A stretch of DNA of 64,000 bases from an uncultured Gammaproteobacteria bacterium (lineage in GTDB: Bacteria; Pseudomonadota; Gammaproteobacteria; JACCXJ01). How positions within the stretch are numbered: position 1 is the stretch's first letter; each line of letters starts with the position of its first letter. The stretch is taken from assembly GCA_963764725.1 (NCBI GenBank), contig CAVXTM010000018.1, positions 32,001 through 96,000 on the forward strand, in the 5' to 3' direction. Below are positions 53,959 to 63,023 of the stretch, piece after piece. Position numbers and translations under genes: made by a program. Under the pieces are notes generated by a model. The model had not been told where the DNA came from and ran no database searches. It worked only from the letters and a program-made list of their open reading frames with translations.

Positions 53959-54288
53959 AGAATACGATCTATACTCTTTCGAGTCGCACGCCCCGCCTGG
54001 TACCCAGACATACCCAGACTCGCGCGTGTTTTTTTTAACGTGTGAAAAACCGAGGATCGTTTTCGAGCCGGTAATCCGACAGCGGATATTCCTTCGCTCG
54101 GGTTTTCCGAACTTCGCCATTTCGCAAAGTTTCCCGTCAGACCGTAAAACAACCCGAATTTCGTCCACTCGCAATCGGTGAGCGGCCGTATGTGGTTGCA
54201 CGGCGTATAGAGAGGGCCGGGCAAAGCACCGGAGCCACATAGCCCGCCAAATTCTCTAAACGGGCTATCCACTTAACGCAAGTCACCG

Positions 54289-55254
54289 CTATATGTTGGG
54301 GTCCGGGCTGTTGACGATTTGGCGGTAAGACACTGGCGGCGTCGCCACGGCCTGTTGCATCAGGCGGTAGAAGAGAAGCCCGCGGGAGCGAGAGGTGCGC
54401 CGGTTGAAGCGAAACGTGTATTCGTCGAGGTAGTAGTCGAGGTACCTGCCACTTACCGCGCCTTGGTGAGTTCCGAGCAGCCAGCGTTTGAGCAGAGAGG
54501 CGATGCGGTGGACACCGGGCATCAGGACATGGGCCGGGTCTCCGCTGTCGGAGAGATTCGTCTTGATGCGCGTATATCCAGACTTCGTCATGTCGTTGTA
54601 CCCGCCCCAGGCGTCGGTGAGAACTTCCGAACCGGGCTCAATGCTCTCGCGCACGAAAGGGACGAGATTGGCGCCGGAGGCGTCGGCCACACGTCTCATG
54701 CGCACGCGTCCAAATCCCTTCGGTTCGTGTAGTTCGACGGCGATGACCACAATCTCCTTTCGTTCTGCTCCACGGCCACGCTTACCGCCTTTTTCGCTGC
54801 CTCCTACGAGCGTCTCGTCCACTTCAACGCGACCATGAAGCCGCTCGCGCCCAGCTCGCACCATCGCGCGTCGCAGCTTATGCAACCAGGTCCATGCCGT
54901 TTGATAGCTTCCCAACCCCAGAACCCGCTTCAGGCCGAGAGCGTTGGCTCCATGCTTCTGACTCGTCACAAACCATATCGCCGCCAACCATGTCTTCAAC
55001 GGGATACGCGTTCGCTCGAACATCGTACCTGCCGTGACCGAGATCTCTGCACCGCAATCCCGACAATGCAGGTAACCTCGTCCCGTGATCCAGGGCGCAC
55101 CGCTGGACCCACAGCGTGGACAGTGGTAACCCGCTGGCCAGCGAAGGCCCGCAAGATACTCGCGACAGCCCGCATCGTCCTCGAAAAAATCATTGAACTC
55201 GCCGAATGTCCGAGGGTAGTCGGACCCGCCGACTGGCCCTTCCCCTGTCCCCAT
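54289..55254 (-). CDS. IS1595-family transposase
   Basis: Zn ribbon (CPRC...CRDC), VEVDET, TDAW and YLDEYTFRFNRR. Confidence 0.95.
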   Translation of the reverse strand: MGTGEGPVGGSDYPRTFGEFNDFFEDDAGCREYLAGLRWPAGYHCPRCGSSGAPWITGRGYLHCRDCGAEISVTAGTMFERTRIPLKTWLAAIWFVTSQKHGANALGLKRVLGLGSYQTAWTWLHKLRRAMVRAGRERLHGRVEVDETLVGGSEKGGKRGRGAERKEIVVIAVELHEPKGFGRVRMRRVADASGANLVPFVRESIEPGSEVLTDAWGGYNDMTKSGYTRIKTNLSDSGDPAHVLMPGVHRIASLLKRWLLGTHQGAVSGRYLDYYLDEYTFRFNRRTSRSRGLLFYRLMQQAVATPPVSYRQIVNSPDPNI

Positions 55255-55267
55255 GGGTAGCAAACAC

Positions 55268-56525
55268 TAGTATAACGATTCTATAAAACATTTACTTTTA
55301 TGAGTAGCGGTGTCATCCTGGCTTCCCAGGCTTATCCATGGTCTGGGAGGGTGATGATGGCGGGAAAGACAAGGCGGGCGGCGCTGGAGGTTTCGGCAGA
55401 TGAACGCGAGAGGTTGGAGCGTTTGCGGGATTCGCGCAAGGCGCCGAAGCGGGAAGTCGAACGCGCGGCGATCCTGCTGCGCTACGCCGTGGGTGAGGGT
55501 CCGGCGGCGATCCAACAGGCGTTGGGGGTGAGCCGGCCGACTATTTACAAATGCATCGACAAGGCGCTGGCGGCCGGGGTGGACGCTGGACTGAAAGATC
55601 ACTACCACCGCCCCAAGGAGCCGCTGATTACACAGCAGGCGAAGGCGTGGGTGTTGAGATAGCGTGCACGAAGCCCACCGATCACGGCTTGGCGGCGGAG
55701 TTGTGGACGCTCTCCGCGCTCGCCCGCTATACCCGCGAGCACGCCGCTGTCGCGGGGCATGGGAGCCTGGCGCAGGCGGGCAAGGCGACGATCTGGCGCA
55801 TCCTGCACGCTGCTGAGATCAAACCCCATAAGGTGGAGTACTACCTGGAGCGCCGCGATGCGCAGTTTGAAGAGAAAATGTGCGAGGTGTTGATGGTCTA
55901 CCAGGAAGTCGCCCTTGCCAATGCCGCGCAGGCCTTGGGCGAGGACGCCGGTTCGGTCATTACCGTCAGCGTGGACGAGAAACCGGGCGTTCAGGCGATC
56001 GAGACTACCGCGCCCGATTTGCCGCCGGTGCCAGGGCAGCACGGCACCTGGAGTCGGGACCACGAGTACCAGCGCCATGGAACCCTGTCCATTCTCGCGG
56101 CCGTGGACTTGCACACCGGCGAAGTCATCGCACAAGTTCATCCGCGCCACCGTAGCCGCGAGTTCATCCTGCTGCTCAAGGAACTCGATGAGCACTACCC
56201 GAAGGCGTGCACCATTCGCGTGATCCTGGACAACCATTCAGCGCATATCTCCAAGGAAACCATGGCCTACCTCGCTTCGCGGCCCAACCGGTTCATCTAC
56301 GTCCATACGCCTAAGCACGGCTCTTGGCTGAACCTGATCGAAACCGTGTTCGGAAAAATGGCCCGTACGTTCCTCAAGGCTATACGCGTCAAGTCTCGCG
56401 AGGAACTTAAGAAGCGCATCTTGCAAGGTGTGCATGAGATGAATCTCGCCCCAGTCGTTGTGCGCTGGACGAAGTTCGATCTGGGGCTGGCATAACAGTA
56501 AGCTAATTGATGAATCGTTATACTA
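55268..56525 (+). mobile_element. IS630-family element; transposase 55354-56495 split by a frameshift near 55656
   Basis: TIRs TAGTATAACGATTC / GAATCGTTATACTA at a CTAG site; SVDEKPG, LDNHSAH and SWLNLIE. Confidence 0.92.
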
Positions 56526-56676
56526 GATGTTGTGGTGACTTGCGTCAAGTGGATAGCCCGTTTCTCTAAAACACGGCTTGATGTTACGAAGGGCTTAGTG
56601 AAGTTCTCGCGAAGCAACGCGATTCGGTCATATATCATGGCTTAAAGTCGTGTTAATCGACTCGCAGTCACTACTA

Positions 56677-56705
56677 TTGACAACAGCGTTGAGGGCGACT
56701 ACATT
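56677..56705 (+). promoter_or_regulatory. Sigma70 promoter of the retron operon
   Basis: TTGACA-17 bp-TACATT. Confidence 0.8.
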
Positions 56706-56711
56706 ACGCTC

Positions 56712-57060
56712 GGGCGCTGGTTATCCGGCGTACTCAGCTCTTTGACAAGACGGAGCCTCAGCGCAAGACCTTAAGCGGTACGGATTTGTTCGTGCCGAAG
56801 TTGGGGGCTAAGCCCCCCTGAATGGCCCGCGATATCCTCGTGGGCCGCGTGCTCGAAGCACGCATGCTCCTCTCATCTCGATCTGCTCGGCATGGCAGCA
56901 CGGTAATTCGTTTGACGCCTTGAGATCAGATATGTAGGGGGCAAGAGCGCGCACATGCGCTCGCGAAATCTGAGTCACTCGGTCCACTCGGGCCTCTCTC
57001 GGGGTCTTGCCACACGGGCAAGGGGCAATTTGGCCCCTGTTCAGAGAGGTTTTGTCATGA
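56712..57060 (+). ncRNA. Predicted retron ncRNA (msr/msd-like structured leader)
   Basis: At least 7 stem-loops; GCAAGACC (56763-56770) pairs with GGTCTTGC (57003-57010); lies upstream of a retron RT. Confidence 0.75.
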
Positions 57061-57284
57061 AAAGCATTGCGCTGAAGGAAGCACTGCGGCTGATCACCAA
57101 AGTGCAGACTAACCCGAGAGTAGGACCTGGCCAAGGAGATCAGTTGCAAAAGGCGAAACGAGAACTGGAGTCAATCGCACGATCCGGCAAGCTGGATAGG
57201 CAAAAAGTCTTTCTAGCTATCGAGATCGTTGCGACAGTTCTTCTAGAACTCGTTGAGGACGATGCAACCCGAAGGTCGGAGTGA
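57057..57284 (+). CDS. 75-aa small helical protein, candidate retron effector
   Basis: GAGAGG RBS then ATG at 57057; overlaps the HTH gene through GTGA. Confidence 0.7.
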   Translation: MKSIALKEALRLITKVQTNPRVGPGQGDQLQKAKRELESIARSGKLDRQKVFLAIEIVATVLLELVEDDATRRSE

Positions 57285-57646
57285 TTCAGAATCTAATGCA
57301 ACAAGACTACGCCAAAGCGTTCCGTATCATCCGCGCGGCCTTCGGACTCCGACAGTCCGAACTGGCCGAGCGGATGCCCATTACCGCGAGCCAGCTCTCG
57401 CTCATAGAAGCCGGGAAGCGCCAGCCGAGTCTGCGTGTAGTGAATGGTTTGGCAAACGCGGTCGGTGTGCCGGCCGCACTGATTTCCCTGCTCGCATCTA
57501 CTGCGAACGACGTTGAATCGAAACCGGACGAGGACATCTCCGACCTCGCTCGTGCGCTCCTGCGGCTCCTCGTGTCAGCGAGGGAAGAGCCTCAGCGCTC
57601 GTTCAAATTTCAGGGAGTAGGAGGTGCAACCGATCCTATCTGTTAG
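57281..57646 (+). CDS. XRE/Cro-C1 HTH protein, retron-associated
   Basis: GLRQSELAERMPITASQLSLIEAGKRQPSL. Confidence 0.88.
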   Translation: MIQNLMQQDYAKAFRIIRAAFGLRQSELAERMPITASQLSLIEAGKRQPSLRVVNGLANAVGVPAALISLLASTANDVESKPDEDISDLARALLRLLVSAREEPQRSFKFQGVGGATDPIC

Positions 57647-58550
57647 GGATCTGGCGTCGCGACTGGGCACGCCTGCTGCTCGGCTTCGTGAAATCGCCGA
57701 CGATATTAAATCGCATTACAAGGTCTGGCCGCTGTTGGATAAAAAGAAGCATAAAGTTAGACACCTGAGGGTTCCCAGCAATGAGCTGAAGGAGATTCAG
57801 CGTCGGATAAAGAACAACATACTCGCGCCGATCACGCTCCGCGAAGGAGTGCATGGTGGAGTTCGCGGCCGATCGCCACGTTCAAACGCCACCCAGCACT
57901 TGGGTCGGCCCTGTGTGGTAAATCTCGACGTCAGGGACTTCTTCCCCAACGTTCGCCACTGCGTGGTTTACCGGTTGTTTCGGCGCGAACTCGGATTCGG
58001 CCGGGACGTAGCGAGACTCTTGACTCGACTGACCACACTCAACAGTCAGCTCCCCCAAGGCGCCCCAACAAGCACAGCCGTCGCCAACGTGCTTCTCGCG
58101 TTGCCCGTCGATGGCCCAATCTCCGTCGAGGCCGAACGCTTTGACGTCCGCTATACACGCTTTGTCAACGACATCACGTTCTCCGGTTCCAATCCGAGAC
58201 CATTGATCAACGTGGTCGGTCGAATGCTGTCGCGAAGACGATTGCCCATGTATCGGAAGAAGGCAAAGTGGCACTCGAAACCAAAGCTTAAGATCACCTC
58301 GAACTCCAAGCCTCAGGAAGTAACGGGCCTAATCGTAAATTCTAGAACAGGCCCAAGTGTCTCTCCACAACACCGAGACAATATCCGGGCTGCTATTTTC
58401 GGGCTTCGCAATACGACTGATGAAGCAGTGCTGCGCGCAGCGGCGAGTTCCATTCGCGGCAGAATCGCTTACGTTCGACAATTCAACCCCGGTTCGGCCA
58501 ACCGTATGCAGCTATGTCTGGAATCAACGCTCGCTCGGTGCGGTAAATAG
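57624..58550 (+). CDS. Retron-type reverse transcriptase (type VI-like; YxDD reads FVND)
   Basis: NATQH (region X), LDVRDFFP, LPQGAPTS, YTRFVNDITFSG and QEVTGLIVN (region Y VTG). Confidence 0.9.
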   Translation: MQPILSVRDLASRLGTPAARLREIADDIKSHYKVWPLLDKKKHKVRHLRVPSNELKEIQRRIKNNILAPITLREGVHGGVRGRSPRSNATQHLGRPCVVNLDVRDFFPNVRHCVVYRLFRRELGFGRDVARLLTRLTTLNSQLPQGAPTSTAVANVLLALPVDGPISVEAERFDVRYTRFVNDITFSGSNPRPLINVVGRMLSRRRLPMYRKKAKWHSKPKLKITSNSKPQEVTGLIVNSRTGPSVSPQHRDNIRAAIFGLRNTTDEAVLRAAASSIRGRIAYVRQFNPGSANRMQLCLESTLARCGK

Positions 58551-58747
58551 GGACAGGCCACGGTTTTCTATTGAACGCGGTTGCGCTCAAACCGGCATCA
58601 GCCATGCGTCTTGGGCTCCTGTAGCGCCCAGTGCATGTGCATGAGAGCGACGGCATCGGCCCCCGGCCAAAGCCTTCAGTTGTGGGCTGTTGCTCGTGCG
58701 GCGGCTGCGGTAGTTCGGCATGTAATAACACTCATCGCAGATTCGTT

Positions 58748-58897
58748 ATGAGCCATCGGATCAACATCATTCTCGACGACGATATTTGGGAGTCTCTGCA
58801 AGCCGTTCCCAAGGGTAAGCGCAGCCCGCTCGTGAATCAGGCGATTGCCGCCTGGCTCGTCCAGAATAACCGCCGCGGCGCGCTGGGGAGGCGATGA
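58748..58897 (+). pseudogene. Short RHH/CopG-type antitoxin remnant
   Basis: MSHRINIILDDDIWESL...KRSPLVNQAI; no toxin gene follows. Confidence 0.5.
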
Positions 58898-59126
58898 ATA
58901 CATTACGCAAGCGGGATAGACCGCTCGCCGGTGCGGCGGAGGATTGGGTGCGCGAAGACCGCGATCGGCATCGATGAGGATCGTCGTCCCCGACGCCTCA
59001 GTGTTGCTCAAATGGGGGTTCCTGCCGAACGGGAAACGTATATCGAGCCAGCGTTCGCGCTACGGGATGCGGGCAGTGCAGGCTCACATGGATCCATAGC
59101 GGGGAGAAAATGCCCGGCCCCGCTCG

Positions 59127-59960
59127 CTAGCGCTCTCCGCGAGCGCTTACGAAGGCGACCTTCACCCCCGCGTTGCTGACACCCAAGTAGCGAAGGAACA
59201 CGTACCAAAAAAGCGTAATGGCCAGCATCTCGACGGTCTCTTCAAACGCCTTGCCGAAGTGTCTGACCATGCCGAAGGCCGGCGCAGGCGCATCGTCCGC
59301 GATCCAGACTCCGGTATCAAGAAATTGGGCGATGAGTCTGTATATATTCCAGGGGTGCCCGGGCATCAGCCCTTCAATGAAATCAAGACCCACCGCGAAC
59401 GCCTGGAGGCTGAGCGCCGCGATGACAAGCCACCGTTGCCCGGCTTCCCGTAGCTCCCGCCAGAGAAACACGAATAGATACAGCCCGAGCAAGCCGAATA
59501 CCGGAACGAACAGGAGCTGCCAGGGGTAACTCGGGAAACGCTCAAATACCGATCCGGGTGCCCGGGAGAGAGCGTAAAAAGCGCTCCCTAGCCGCTCGTG
59601 GATCTGCACGCCGTCATCGATCGCCATGTAGATGAAAAGCGCGGCCACGATGGCCCAGCCGCGGCCCCTCTGTGAGGCCGAACGAGCCTGTGCCACGAAG
59701 TAGATCATAAGCGCGGTCAGCCCGGTCAGAAGCGTCTGGGTGGCCCCGAACCAAGACGCCGCGCTGTCTTCGCGGGTGATGTTGAAGAGGCGCCGCAGCG
59801 GTCCGATCGCTGCTCCTAGTCGATAGTTCATGACATAGTCGAGCAGGAGAAACGCGAGCCCGAGAAAAATGCCCATCCAAAGCACACGCCGAGCGACCCG
59901 CACGAGGTCCAACGTGAGAGCGGGGGCAGCGATAGCGTCGCTTTCAAAGGTAAAGCGCAT
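59127..59960 (-). CDS. Multi-pass membrane protein of unknown function
   Basis: 6-7 hydrophobic segments; IDDGVQIHE and EETVEM motifs. Confidence 0.7.
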   Translation of the reverse strand: MRFTFESDAIAAPALTLDLVRVARRVLWMGIFLGLAFLLLDYVMNYRLGAAIGPLRRLFNITREDSAASWFGATQTLLTGLTALMIYFVAQARSASQRGRGWAIVAALFIYMAIDDGVQIHERLGSAFYALSRAPGSVFERFPSYPWQLLFVPVFGLLGLYLFVFLWRELREAGQRWLVIAALSLQAFAVGLDFIEGLMPGHPWNIYRLIAQFLDTGVWIADDAPAPAFGMVRHFGKAFEETVEMLAITLFWYVFLRYLGVSNAGVKVAFVSARGER

Positions 59961-60205
59961 GCCGGAGGATGACGACTTGATCAATGCAAAGCATACCGCC
60001 TCAAAGCTTCACCGCCCAACGCCACGCCATTCAGTAGCCGTTCAGCTTGGACCTGTAGAGTGTGCATTCGTACAATCGGGATGATCCTCTCCTCTCGAGT
60101 GTGCCAAGGTTAATGCATCGCCGGCGAGAGTGCATCGCGTTTTGGTCTTAGAAAACCATATCTCGCAATACGCAGCGAAGCGGGCATCGGTTCAGGAGGT
60201 TTTTA

Positions 60206-60532
60206 ATGCACGGGGTCGGTACTGGAATTCTCGAGCAAACGCCGCTAACACGTGTGCACAGACGCTTAGCGATTTTGGTTCCCATCGTCGCTTCGTTGGC
60301 CATATCGCCGTGTGTCTTCGCCGACCCCCCGTACCGGACGCCAGCACCTGGATACTACTCTAAACATCACCACTTTCATCACTTCGGCGACGACGATGAT
60401 AGTAGTGATGACGAAAGCAGCGGCCACGGGTATAGACGCTATTCTTATGATTATGATGTGCACCATCACGATCACTATTATGACGGCAATCCCTTCGACG
60501 ATGAGGCCTATGAGGTCGAATACGAATGGTAG
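60206..60532 (+). CDS. Small secreted His/Asp/Tyr-rich protein
   Basis: Hydrophobic signal ending VFA, then HHHFHHFGDDDDSSDDE and HHHDHYY. Confidence 0.5.
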   Translation: MHGVGTGILEQTPLTRVHRRLAILVPIVASLAISPCVFADPPYRTPAPGYYSKHHHFHHFGDDDDSSDDESSGHGYRRYSYDYDVHHHDHYYDGNPFDDEAYEVEYEW

Positions 60533-60865
60533 TGAGCAGGGCGGAATCACTCGGTTCGCGGCCACGAGATTAGCGATCCACCGGCATTGGACTCGCCCAC
60601 CCTAGGATTTAAACACCCCGTCGCCCCCCACGGCCGCCGGTATTCAACCCAAATCCAACAGACTGCTAGGTCGAGGGCTCGGATGTTTGACAACTCACTA
60701 GCCTAGCACTACCGTGCCTATTGATTCCGGTGCGGGTGCGGAGGCTGCACGTAGGCCGACAGCCGGTCCAGCCACTCCTTATTCATCCTGGCCCCCGCCA
60801 TTGCAGCGGGACATTCTAACAGGCAGGTCAGTAACAACTATTGATCGAGGGATCGTTTAATCGCC

Positions 60866-63023
60866 ATGGAAGAGGATTTGACCATCGCGGATCTGAGCAT
60901 CGCATCAGACGCCGATTGGCACTTACCCGGGACGAAGCTTCATCGGTATCGCGTCGACAGCGTCCTCGGCCAGGGGGACTATTGGTTAACCTATTTAGCC
61001 AGTGACCTGAACCTGGGCCGCCCGGTTATTATTACCGAATACATGCCGTGCGAGATCGCCATACGCGATACGCGCGGCGTGATTCATCCTGCCGCTGCGG
61101 AGCATGGCGCGGAGTATAAGGCTGGGACTTGAGTGCTTCCTGACTGACGCGCAAAAGCTCGCCGGGATCAGGCATCAAAATATCGCCCTAGCGTTGAATG
61201 CCTTCGAAGCGAACAACAGCGCTTATATCGTCGTCGCGCACGAGCAAGGCAAGAAAGCAGAACACCTCTTTGATGGCTCAACTGTGGCGGAAAAGGAGCT
61301 TCTCGCCTTGGTATTACCGATCCTGGACGGGCTCGAAGCGATCCACGCAAGCGGCTATATTCACCGCTACATTCAGCCGTCAAACATTATTATTCGTCCA
61401 GATGGGAGCCCCGTGTTAACGGGCTTCAACCCGGGCGGCGGCGCTCTCTTCAACCCCGCTAGCACATTGACCAAGCATTTCCCATCGGACTTCGCGCCCA
61501 TCGAGCTTTGCTTTGGCGATGGCGAGCTGCATGGCCCGTGGACCGACATTTTCAGCCTTGGCGCAACGCTCTACCAGGCAGTGGTTGGCGTTGCACCGGT
61601 AGCTGCAATCGAGCGCAGTCGCATGGTCGTCCAAGGCGAAACCGATCCGCTGATGTCCGTACTGCCGGTTGGGCAGGAAAACTATAGCGATGCCTTTCTT
61701 AAAGCCATTGATCATGCCTTACGTTTTTTACCCACGCAGCGGCCGCTGACCGTTGCGGCGTGGCGCAAGGAGCTATCCGGGAACGACTCGCTCGACATCG
61801 ACTTTGTGATCCGGCCTAAATCAGAGCACGTGGTCAAGCTGCGTGATGATGTCGAGACACTACGAGCCCAGGAAGATCACAAGCGGCGCGTGGCCGAAGA
61901 GGAGCGGACCGTCAGGAAGCTTCTCGACCTCGCGCGCACCGCCATAAGCGAACACGATCTGCAGACGGCTCAGACCAGGCTCGACGAGGCCGCGGGAATC
62001 GCACCGACATCGGAAGCCGTAGCCCACCTTCGCGAGGAGCTCAAGGCGCGCGAGACCGCGGTCGTAGAGCAACGCCTCGTGAAGGAGACGCGGCACCTAC
62101 AGGCCGAAGAGACCGCGAACGAGTTAGTTACGCTTGGCCGCGATCCGACGGGCAACCAAGCACGGCCCGCCGTTGCAGGGAGGAGGGACGGGAAAATTGA
62201 GAGCATCCCGGCGTTAAATCGGTCATTACAACCAGCGGATGTTCCGGTGAACATCCCGATAATGAACGACTGGGTACGGAGCACGGTCGATCCCTCCAAT
62301 GAAACGGCGGGCGGCAGTCCCCCCGAACGGGACCTGCGACGACGGCACCGCGGCAAGTGGCTCGGATACTCTGCCGCGACCGCAGGGATAGTGGGTCTGG
62401 GACTCTCCTTGGCGTGGATGCGTCCGGGTTCGTTTGCTATCCTCTACGATGCGGCAGACGAATGGCTTTCCGGAAACCTCTTTCGTGACGAGCCAACCGA
62501 AACCCTGCCCAAGCCGGCGGCCCAAGTACCCGTACCGGGACGTGAGGATCCAGCCGGAGCGCCGCCCGTTTTCCAACCGCGCTTGGATCAGGAGCAATGG
62601 GACGCGGCTCGGACCAGGCTCGACGAGGCCGCCGTGAACGCACCGGAATCGGAAACCGTAGCCGGCCTTCGCGACGAGCTCAAGGCGCGCGAGACCAGGC
62701 AAGTAGCGATCCGAGAGGTCACCCCCTCGCGTGTTCGTGTGAGGCCGGGCGAGACCGTACGGTTTTATACCGAATATTCTCTAAGCCTTCCGGCGAGCGA
62801 CAAGGAAGCTCATGTGAAAGCCACCTGGGTGCTGCTTCGAGGCGGCCGGAAAATCGGGCGAGAAGGTATCGACAATCGATACGCAAGGGCAGGCCTCAAT
62901 ACCGCGGTAACCGAGCTGACATTACCACCCCGGACCGCATCCGGGGAATACACCGTCGAGCATCGGGTGCAGGTGGGTGATAGCTTCGATGTGGCGCACT
63001 CGCGTTTTGTCCTAGCGAGGTAG
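60866..63023 (+). CDS. Ser/Thr kinase-fold (pseudokinase) membrane protein, frameshift near 61125
   Basis: Kinase fold recognisable (FAPIE, GPWTDIFSLGATLY) but with IITEY, HRYIQP and TGFN at catalytic positions; TM helix and C-terminal beta domain. Confidence 0.75.

Follow-up and report, generated by a model that had tools for sequence, protein, structure and literature searches.

We analyzed a 64,000-nt stretch of contig CAVXTM010000018.1 (positions 32,001–96,000; hereafter the window), from an uncultured Gammaproteobacteria bacterium. Judged by its sequence, it carries a Type VI retron with the gene order SP–HTH–RT, encoding a small protein (SP), a helix–turn–helix (HTH) protein and a reverse transcriptase (RT). 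A leader in the non-coding RNA (ncRNA) upstream of SP can pair with the ribosome-binding site (RBS) of SP, and the evidence that this leader–RBS helix is conserved by compensatory change across related loci is strong. We give an even chance to the whole explanation developed below, in which ncRNA and SP would form one hybrid RNA, the helix would gate SP translation, multicopy single-stranded DNA (msDNA) made by the RT would release it, HTH would act as a brake, and an active-site substitution (N182) would leave the switch stuck off in this genome. This explanation draws on sequence comparison, predicted folds and published relatives. The relatives are two Type VI retrons, compared throughout by their published descriptions: Retron-Vpa2 of Vibrio parahaemolyticus (Zhang et al., bioRxiv 10.1101/2025.10.22.683967) and Retron-Sen3 of Salmonella enterica (Garcia-Rodriguez et al., bioRxiv 10.64898/2026.04.27.721009). 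Coordinates of all features are given in Table 1.

The leader pairs with the ribosome-binding region of SP

An initial annotation of the window, made from the letters alone, proposed that TGACAAGAC (56743–56751) pairs, with one G:U, with GTTTTGTCA (57049–57057), a strand running from the last G of GAGAGG (57044–57049) to the A of the ATG at 57057. This complementarity is indeed present. The suggested extension through GCTCTT/AAAAGC is complementary only in part, and requires one C·A mismatch and a 2-nt bulge. RNAfold favors another register, GACGGAGCCUC (56749–56759) with GAGGUUUUGUC (57046–57056), which has 11 bp and –14.6 kcal/mol as compared to 9 bp and –9.2 kcal/mol. The favored register covers GAGG of the Shine–Dalgarno (SD) sequence and extends up to the base preceding the ATG. 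The two registers overlap and are mutually exclusive, and the ribosome-binding region is covered by either. The closest relative (L002) retains the favored register, with CCUU facing GAGG and GGCG facing CGCC, and not the one first proposed, as seen on inspection of the duplex by eye. In the window, the leader/RBS duplex scored –17.6 kcal/mol, versus –9.95 ± 2.9 for 1000 shuffled leaders, 1.8% of which were as low. Support from this single window is thus modest.

To ask whether the pairing is conserved, as the initial annotation had suggested doing, we used related loci gathered via an SP alignment. These numbered 30, 25 from metagenomes and five from genomes (the latter from a genome search with an 18-sequence alignment); genome matches include Sinimarinibacterium flocculans, Gammaproteobacteria metagenome-assembled genomes (MAGs) and one Pseudohongiella MAG. 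At least ∼330 nt upstream of SP was available in 26 loci. Exact duplicates L006 (identical to L005) and L017 (identical to L016) were removed, and L014 was excluded for its want of the conserved 5′ motif. L003, near-identical to L001, was retained in a MAFFT alignment of 24 sequences and 539 columns (A3) and left out from the duplex tests onward, giving a final set of 23 sequences, window included. For each locus, a 25-nt leader, starting within a conserved GCUCUUU box, was paired with the RBS segment (–22 to AUG) of its own locus (cognate) or of permuted loci.

Across these 23 non-identical loci, cognate leader/RBS duplexes averaged –14.9 kcal/mol. Permuted pairs averaged –9.36 ± 0.6 (minimum –12.1), and none of 20,000 permutations reached the cognate mean. 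The cognate partner ranked best of all in 10 of 23 rows. At least 4 nt of the spacer (–7 to –1) were paired in all 23 cognate duplexes, at least three of the four SD core nucleotides in 16, and at least 2 nt of the start codon in 11; one locus, L023, paired poorly (–6.9). When the RBS segment was instead tested against the first 27 nt of the coding sequence (CDS), there was no signal (–6.32 versus –6.67, with 16,339 of 20,000 permutations as low). Hence the duplex test does not come out positive by default, and it is the pairing with the leader that is conserved. A local hairpin between the RBS and the early CDS, seen in the full-length minimum free energy (MFE) fold of the window, was rejected as a conserved partner, as it showed no covariation. 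Run on A3, RNAalifold did not recover the leader–RBS helix, since the leaders are variable and A3 does not bring them into register with one another.

The helix lies outside a covarying ncRNA core

The leader helix lies directly outside an a1/a2-like helix, in which GCAAGACC (56763–56770) pairs with GGTCTTGC (57003–57010) perfectly over 8 bp, just as initially described. All of the hairpins listed in that description (Table 1) appear in the MFE fold of 56737–57065 (–154.5 kcal/mol). Five helices of this core, the a1/a2-like one included, were scored for covariation over the 24 sequences of A3: 94.4% of cells were paired, and 18 of 31 pairs had changed on both sides. None of 500 shuffles was as high by any of five measures, and controls in which the helices were slid gave no more than 48.8% pairing. 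The core has features of a Type VI hybrid RNA or cl2075-type ncRNA, namely covarying terminal inverted repeats and an SP RBS within the basal stem. A search of 54000–62000 on both strands returned no Rfam match at E ≤ 1.

Upstream of the leader, the 5′ stem-loop was paired in 98.2% of cells (24 sequences), with three of its seven pairs changed on both sides. The GCUCUUU box that follows was present in 23 of 24 loci examined, the exception being L014, and its invariant A3 columns are G31, T33, C34, T35, T36 and T37. The GCUCUU of the window has a complement in AAGAGC at 56942–56947; the invariance of the box precludes a covariation test of any partner. L014, which has neither 5′ stem-loop nor box upstream of SP, may be a degraded copy. 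The long imperfect stem is variable in length and sequence among loci. By analogy with SL3 of Sen3 and the msd of Vpa2, it could serve as the template for reverse transcription.

A long-range inverted repeat spans the SP gene

A second long-range pairing joins the ncRNA to sequences past SP. In the fold of 56700–57300, inverted repeats IR1 and IR2 form 12 bp with one G:U, and IR2 falls at the GGAG (57278–57281) that lies upstream of the HTH start. By eye, a long IR1–IR2 duplex with compensatory changes is present in most of 22 loci; L020 has none, and in L028 the duplex lies further downstream. Cognate IR1–IR2 pairs averaged –22.25 kcal/mol versus –17.65 ± 0.66 for permuted pairs, with none of 20,000 permutations as low (n = 21). 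L020 also has a truncated SP (58 aa) and may be a degraded copy. IR1 sits inside the region enclosed by a1/a2 and IR2 outside it, so IR1–IR2 crosses both the leader helix and the a1/a2 helix. This crossing is why the leader helix drops out of the nested MFE fold of the long transcript.

We found no terminator-like site on the + strand from 56400 to 58800. Metatranscriptome contigs identical to the window, from two runs of one study, cover 56779–57286 (X6) and 56795–57077 plus 57077–57278 (X9). These RNA-library contigs bridge the junction between ncRNA and SP; they neither prove a single transcript nor give its ends, and they could derive from DNA in the library. They do not cover the HTH–RT region (57310–58600), which is not evidence of differential expression. 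The proposal that ncRNA and effector mRNA are one molecule thus holds at the level of structure, where IR1–IR2 covariation and the lack of a terminator make them one unit.

Matched direct repeats co-vary across loci

The window contains two 7-nt matches between the candidate msd side and the RBS side of the ncRNA: GGGGCAA at 56938–56944 recurs at 57022–57028, and GGGCAAG at 56939–56945 recurs at 57016–57022. Comparable repeats occur across the loci. Copy 1 lies ∼125 to 97 nt upstream of the ATG, mostly in or adjoining the small hairpin that follows the long stem, and copy 2 lies ∼45 to 34 nt upstream, directly before the RBS-proximal hairpin. The repeated word, of 7–9 nt, varies among loci yet is identical between the two copies of one locus. 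The longest common substring of cognate regions averaged 7.48 nt versus 5.53 ± 0.25 for permuted ones, and none of 20,000 permutations was as high (n = 23). Many of the words contain a GCGC palindrome, and the position of copy 1 varies among loci.

For Vpa2, Zhang et al. report direct repeats of 7 nt, one on the msd side and one in the riboregulator, and suggest that the former, once reverse-transcribed, pairs with the latter. By the same logic, the co-varying repeats could be evolutionary evidence that msDNA acts as an antisense trigger that opens the leader–RBS helix. It would follow that the Vpa2-type switch extends to a lineage with Sen3-like RNA, and that the N182 RT is a natural locked-off allele. 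We put this forward tentatively, as less likely than not.

The RT is of Type VI and carries a possible active-site substitution

The initial annotation called the locus a retron, and PADLOC places it in Type VI. The best PADLOC profile for the RT is PDLC02952 RT_VI (9.5e-63, 210.1 bits), followed by RT_III-A (178 bits), and RT residues 3–292 align to positions 5–276 of the 279 in the RT_VI profile. The motifs NAxxH and VTG, which are specific to retron RTs, are present as SNATQH and EVTGLIVN. A Cro/C1-type HTH gene overlaps the RT gene, and SP lies upstream of HTH. The HTH start, the ATG at 57296, was fixed by comparison with 19 homologs. HTH has 116 aa in the window and 103–110 aa in those homologs; the ∼9 extra residues are C-terminal and overlap the RT start.

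SP had 72 homologs at E ≤ 0.01, and no Pfam or PADLOC family matched it. It is predicted to be a three-helix protein (pLDDT 90.9). An HTH gene follows SP in 19 homologous loci, those from which an HTH open reading frame (ORF) was extracted, and an RT catalytic box lies downstream in 14. No second match to the RT was found in the source genome.

In place of an intact Y/F-x-D-D box, the window RT reads F-V-N-D, a difference that bears on the activity of this copy and not on its ancestry. Asp occupies the position of N182 in all 120 best homologs aligned, with Asn found in the window only, and all 14 homologous-locus RTs in which the box was found have DD. DNA contigs of relatives, from metagenome runs X1 and X2, have G at 58167. 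Among the sequencing runs, the best matched no more than 0.34 of sampled words and none contained the RT region of this organism; N182 is therefore either real or an assembly error.

Loss of a catalytic Asp in a polymerase predicts little or no reverse transcription. Reverse transcription by this RT copy may thus not occur at all, and the proposed switch is probably stuck off in this genome. If N182 is real, the system would be non-toxic and non-defending, by analogy with Vpa2, in which a catalytically dead RT is described as non-toxic with defence abolished (Zhang et al.).

N182, set against Asp in 120 of 120 homologs, also raises the prospect of a remnant locus, decaying or domesticated, whose RNA structure is a leftover that no longer functions in this genome. 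Genes for IS1595-type and IS630/DDE_3-type transposases directly upstream (54289–56495) would fit such a history. Yet the SP, HTH and RT frames are intact, as are the promoter, the helices and IR1–IR2, and window-identical contigs from RNA libraries span the ncRNA and SP. N182 itself is a single base change, perhaps recent or an error. We consider a remnant improbable.

Proposed mechanism and alternative modes of control

Transcription from the promoter at 56677–56705 most likely yields one hybrid RNA that comprises the ncRNA and the SP toxin gene. In this RNA, leader nt 56749–56759 pair with the SD, spacer and start region of SP (57046–57057), and the helix would hold SP translation off. Upon phage attack, reverse-transcribed msDNA would accumulate and, as in Vpa2, release SP translation, and it may do so by pairing with the matched repeat beside the RBS hairpin. 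HTH would provide a second brake, on RT and/or SP.

This scheme follows what is described for Vpa2 (Zhang et al., 10.1101/2025.10.22.683967). There, the hybrid RNA consists of msr-msd plus the SP coding sequence, RBS and AUG are sequestered in stems, and SP is translated only upon msDNA accumulation, which is brought about by phage triggers or by loss of HTH. An RT-controlled translational switch, as the initial annotation envisaged, is on this description demonstrated for Vpa2, and the leader–RBS helix is conserved here. The case is weakened by Sen3, in which SP is described as constitutive despite a sequestered RBS.

The initial annotation also had reverse transcription or RNase H processing unmask the SP start. 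In such a scheme, reverse transcription of the msd and removal of the template by RNase H would cut the same RNA and free the RBS from the leader. RNase H does trim the template in retrons, and here the template would lie between the two halves of the leader helix and of the a1/a2 helix, so its removal would leave a weaker, two-piece helix. But the ∼19 bp of leader plus a1/a2 would keep the pieces joined. Moreover, msDNA supplied in trans, from another retron, is reported to suffice to switch SP on in Vpa2 (Zhang et al.), making cleavage in cis unneeded. Unmasking by processing is thus unsupported, and we regard it as quite unlikely.

A different mode of control is suggested by Sen3 (Garcia-Rodriguez et al., 10.64898/2026.04.27.721009). 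As described, its RBS is predicted to be sequestered, and it has a conserved 5′ stem-loop and IR1–IR2 flanking SP, all of which the window shares. Yet tagged SP was detected without phage, and HTH neutralized SP without ncRNA or RT. By this model, the leader–RBS helix would be an outer extension of a1/a2 used in RT binding, priming or assembly rather than a translational gate, and constitutive SP would be bound by HTH and freed when phage interferes with a host pathway. Structure prediction of an HTH–SP complex points weakly the same way, with an ipSAE of 0.58 versus 0.00 for the best control; at least 88% of contacts agreed between runs, and partner pLDDT was at least 76. Of 80 solved complexes, 58 reached the ipSAE mark, as did two of 110 mismatched pairs, and passing scores of 0.60 or below came from only seven of the 80 solved complexes and from both passing mismatches. 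Against control of this kind, the covariation does not end with a structural stem but carries on into the SD and start codon, and co-varying matched repeats are not predicted by purely protein-level control. We see this mode of control as possible, albeit rather unlikely, in the window.

Several observations weigh against the explanation as a whole. Sen3 couples the same predicted sequestration with constitutive SP and control at the level of HTH, so the helix alone is no proof of a switch. In a transcript of ncRNA length, the SD is unpaired with a probability of 0.32, as compared to 0.24 ± 0.09 with shuffled leaders, and in the fold of the full hybrid RNA the AUG is unpaired at 0.94. Accessibility and thermodynamics computed from the window are thus equivocal and do not discriminate between the modes of control. 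IR1–IR2 either alternates with the leader and a1/a2 helices or forms a pseudoknot with them. Both search regions for the direct repeats were picked after the data had been inspected, and the 7-nt repeat of the window falls within the non-cognate background (row mean 6.4, maximum 8). Finally, N182 could be an assembly error.

Promoter, candidate operator and neighboring genes

The ncRNA with its leader helix sits in the 560 nt that separate an IS630/DDE_3-type transposase gene (55551–56495) from the three co-oriented genes. From the position of the sigma-70-like promoter, transcription likely starts at ∼56712. A strict version of this promoter (TTGAY-N16–18-TAnnnT) is present in 15 of the 23 loci, and in 14 of these the –10 element ends 28–38 nt before the GCUCUUU box. 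The inverted repeat that overlaps the –35 hexamer is also conserved: in 20 of the 23 loci, GTCA-N5–10-TTGAC holds a fixed place relative to the box (–66 to –77). The HTH protein may use it as an operator. Neither Type VI preprint (10.1101/2025.10.22.683967; 10.64898/2026.04.27.721009) has the word 'operator' in its main text, and the supplements of both may show variation in repeats or operators.

Upstream of the retron, an IS1595/ISXO2-type transposase gene lies on the – strand (54289–55263). The IS630-like gene, on the + strand, is split over two frames, with an HTH part at 55300–55662 and the DDE_3 part at 55551–56495. Right after RT, ORFs 58631–58897 and 58931–59179 gave no Pfam match; the first contains a stretch that by eye resembles a ribbon–helix–helix antitoxin. 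Further downstream, a 639-aa ORF (61104–63023) has a Ser/Thr protein kinase domain at its N terminus (Pfam Pkinase, 3.1e-15).

Table 1. Positions of retron features within the window
Feature	Position	Strand	Description
GTCA-N6-TTGAC inverted repeat (GTCA/TGAC)	56667–56681	+	Overlaps –35 hexamer; candidate operator
Sigma-70-like promoter, TTGACA-17-TACATT	56677–56705	+	10/12 consensus matches
5′ stem-loop, GCGCUGG-UUAU-CCGGCGU	56714–56731	+	7 bp; immediately upstream of leader and inverted repeat
GCUCUUU box	56737–56743	+	Between 5′ stem-loop and leader strand; six of seven positions invariant
Leader strand pairing with SP ribosome-binding region	56743–56759	+	Initially proposed register 56743–56751; favored register 56749–56759
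a1-like inverted repeat, GCAAGACC	56763–56770	+	3/6 helix pairs with two-sided changes
Four msr-like hairpins	56776–56863	+	56776–56797, 56803–56817, 56824–56846, 56847–56863; from folds; first and third covary
Long imperfect stem, candidate msd (reverse-transcription template)	56865–56943	+	From fold
Direct repeat copy 1, GGGGCAAG	56938–56945	+	Adjoins small hairpin 3′ of long stem
Small hairpin, GAGCGC-GCACAU-GCGCUC	56945–56962	+	3′ of long stem; from fold
IR1, UCUGAGUCACUC	56969–56980	+	Pairs with IR2, beyond SP gene
a2-like inverted repeat, GGUCUUGC	57003–57010	+	Perfect pair with 56763–56770
Direct repeat copy 2	57016–57028	+	GGGCAAG 57016–57022, GGGGCAA 57022–57028; 5′ side of RBS-proximal hairpin
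RBS-proximal hairpin, AGGGGC-AAUUUG-GCCCCU	57021–57038	+	91.7% of cells paired
SP SD GAGAGG (57044–57049), spacer and ATG (57057–57059)	57044–57059	+	3′ strand of leader helix
SP	57057–57284	+	75-aa small protein; presumed toxic effector, by analogy with the SPs of Vpa2 and Sen3
IR2, GAGUGAUUCAGA	57279–57290	+	Spans SP stop codon (57282–57284), right after GGAG
HTH, Cro/C1-type	57296–57646	+	116 aa; PADLOC PDLC02926 HTH_VI 1.6e-17; Pfam HTH_31 3.6e-11, HTH_3
Retron RT	57624–58550	+	308 aa; 23-nt overlap with HTH gene
Codon AAC (N182)	58167–58169	+	First Asp of F-V-D-D catalytic box; window reads F-V-N-D

Comparison with known systems

As far as the published description of Vpa2 goes, the window shares with it the SP–HTH–RT operon, a base-paired SP RBS and start (predicted), and, most likely, an ncRNA joined to SP in one hybrid RNA, as the Vpa2 RNA is described. 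Also common to both are a 3′ inverted repeat past SP that anneals to the ncRNA, direct repeats on the msd side and the RBS side, and the proposed logic by which msDNA switches toxin translation on. There are differences as well. In Vpa2, RBS and AUG are described as lying in local stem-loops of a second arm, whereas in the window the RBS has its conserved partner in the 5′ leader, and the local RBS/CDS hairpin shows no covariation. SP has 55 aa in Vpa2 and 75 aa here; the repeats are described as sequence-conserved in Vpa2 but are locus-specific, and matched within each locus, in the window family. N182 likewise sets the window RT apart from that of Vpa2 as described.

With Sen3 and the cl2075 lineage, the window has in common IR1–IR2 around SP, a helical SP of 75–79 aa and hosts among the Beta- and Gammaproteobacteria. 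The published Type VI SP clusters comprise cl2075 and its sister cl3272, cl2760, cl3897 and 'Large'. The 5′ stem has 7 bp in the window, as compared to the 5 bp reported for Sen3/cl2075. The GCUCUUU box lies 290–387 nt from the start codon in the window loci, while the Sen3 element is reported within ∼280 nt of the start. Control of SP in Sen3 is described as post-translational.

The window thus combines all the RNA features described by Garcia-Rodriguez et al. with the logic proposed by Zhang et al. In a full-text search, the term hyRNA turned up together with retron only in the Zhang preprint. The initial annotation presented its mechanism as a departure from the usual neutralization in retrons; with the preprints on Vpa2 and Sen3 preceding it, that claim is outdated, and the mechanism is a rediscovery of a design published, as these two preprints describe it, in 2025–2026. 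The small additions made here are the co-varying direct repeats, the conserved inverted repeat that overlaps the promoter and the natural RT active-site variant.

Canonical retrons such as Retron-Eco1 (Ec86) keep their ncRNA apart from the mRNA of the effector, and their msDNA serves as an antitoxin at the protein level. The window resembles them in its NAxxH/VTG RT, in an a1/a2-like repeat that encloses msr hairpins and in a long msd-like stem. Unlike in canonical retrons, the effector RBS is part of the ncRNA fold. In hok-like type I toxin mRNAs, long-range 5′–3′ pairing closes the ribosome-binding region until the RNA is remodelled. This is a resemblance only, with no homology, and hok involves no retron, RT or DNA product.

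Type VI is the sole retron type in which the reverse-transcribed DNA is reported to activate the toxin instead of restraining it. The Type VI examples studied disagree, as described, on the mode of control, which is translational in Vpa2 and post-translational in Sen3. To these the window adds an SP lineage that is mostly environmental and associated with Gammaproteobacteria, and it supplies a natural RT active-site variant. The overall picture of Type VI systems is unchanged. The co-evolving leader–RBS helix, the inverted repeat spanning SP and the direct repeats offer ready designs for compensatory mutations by which the mode of control could be established.

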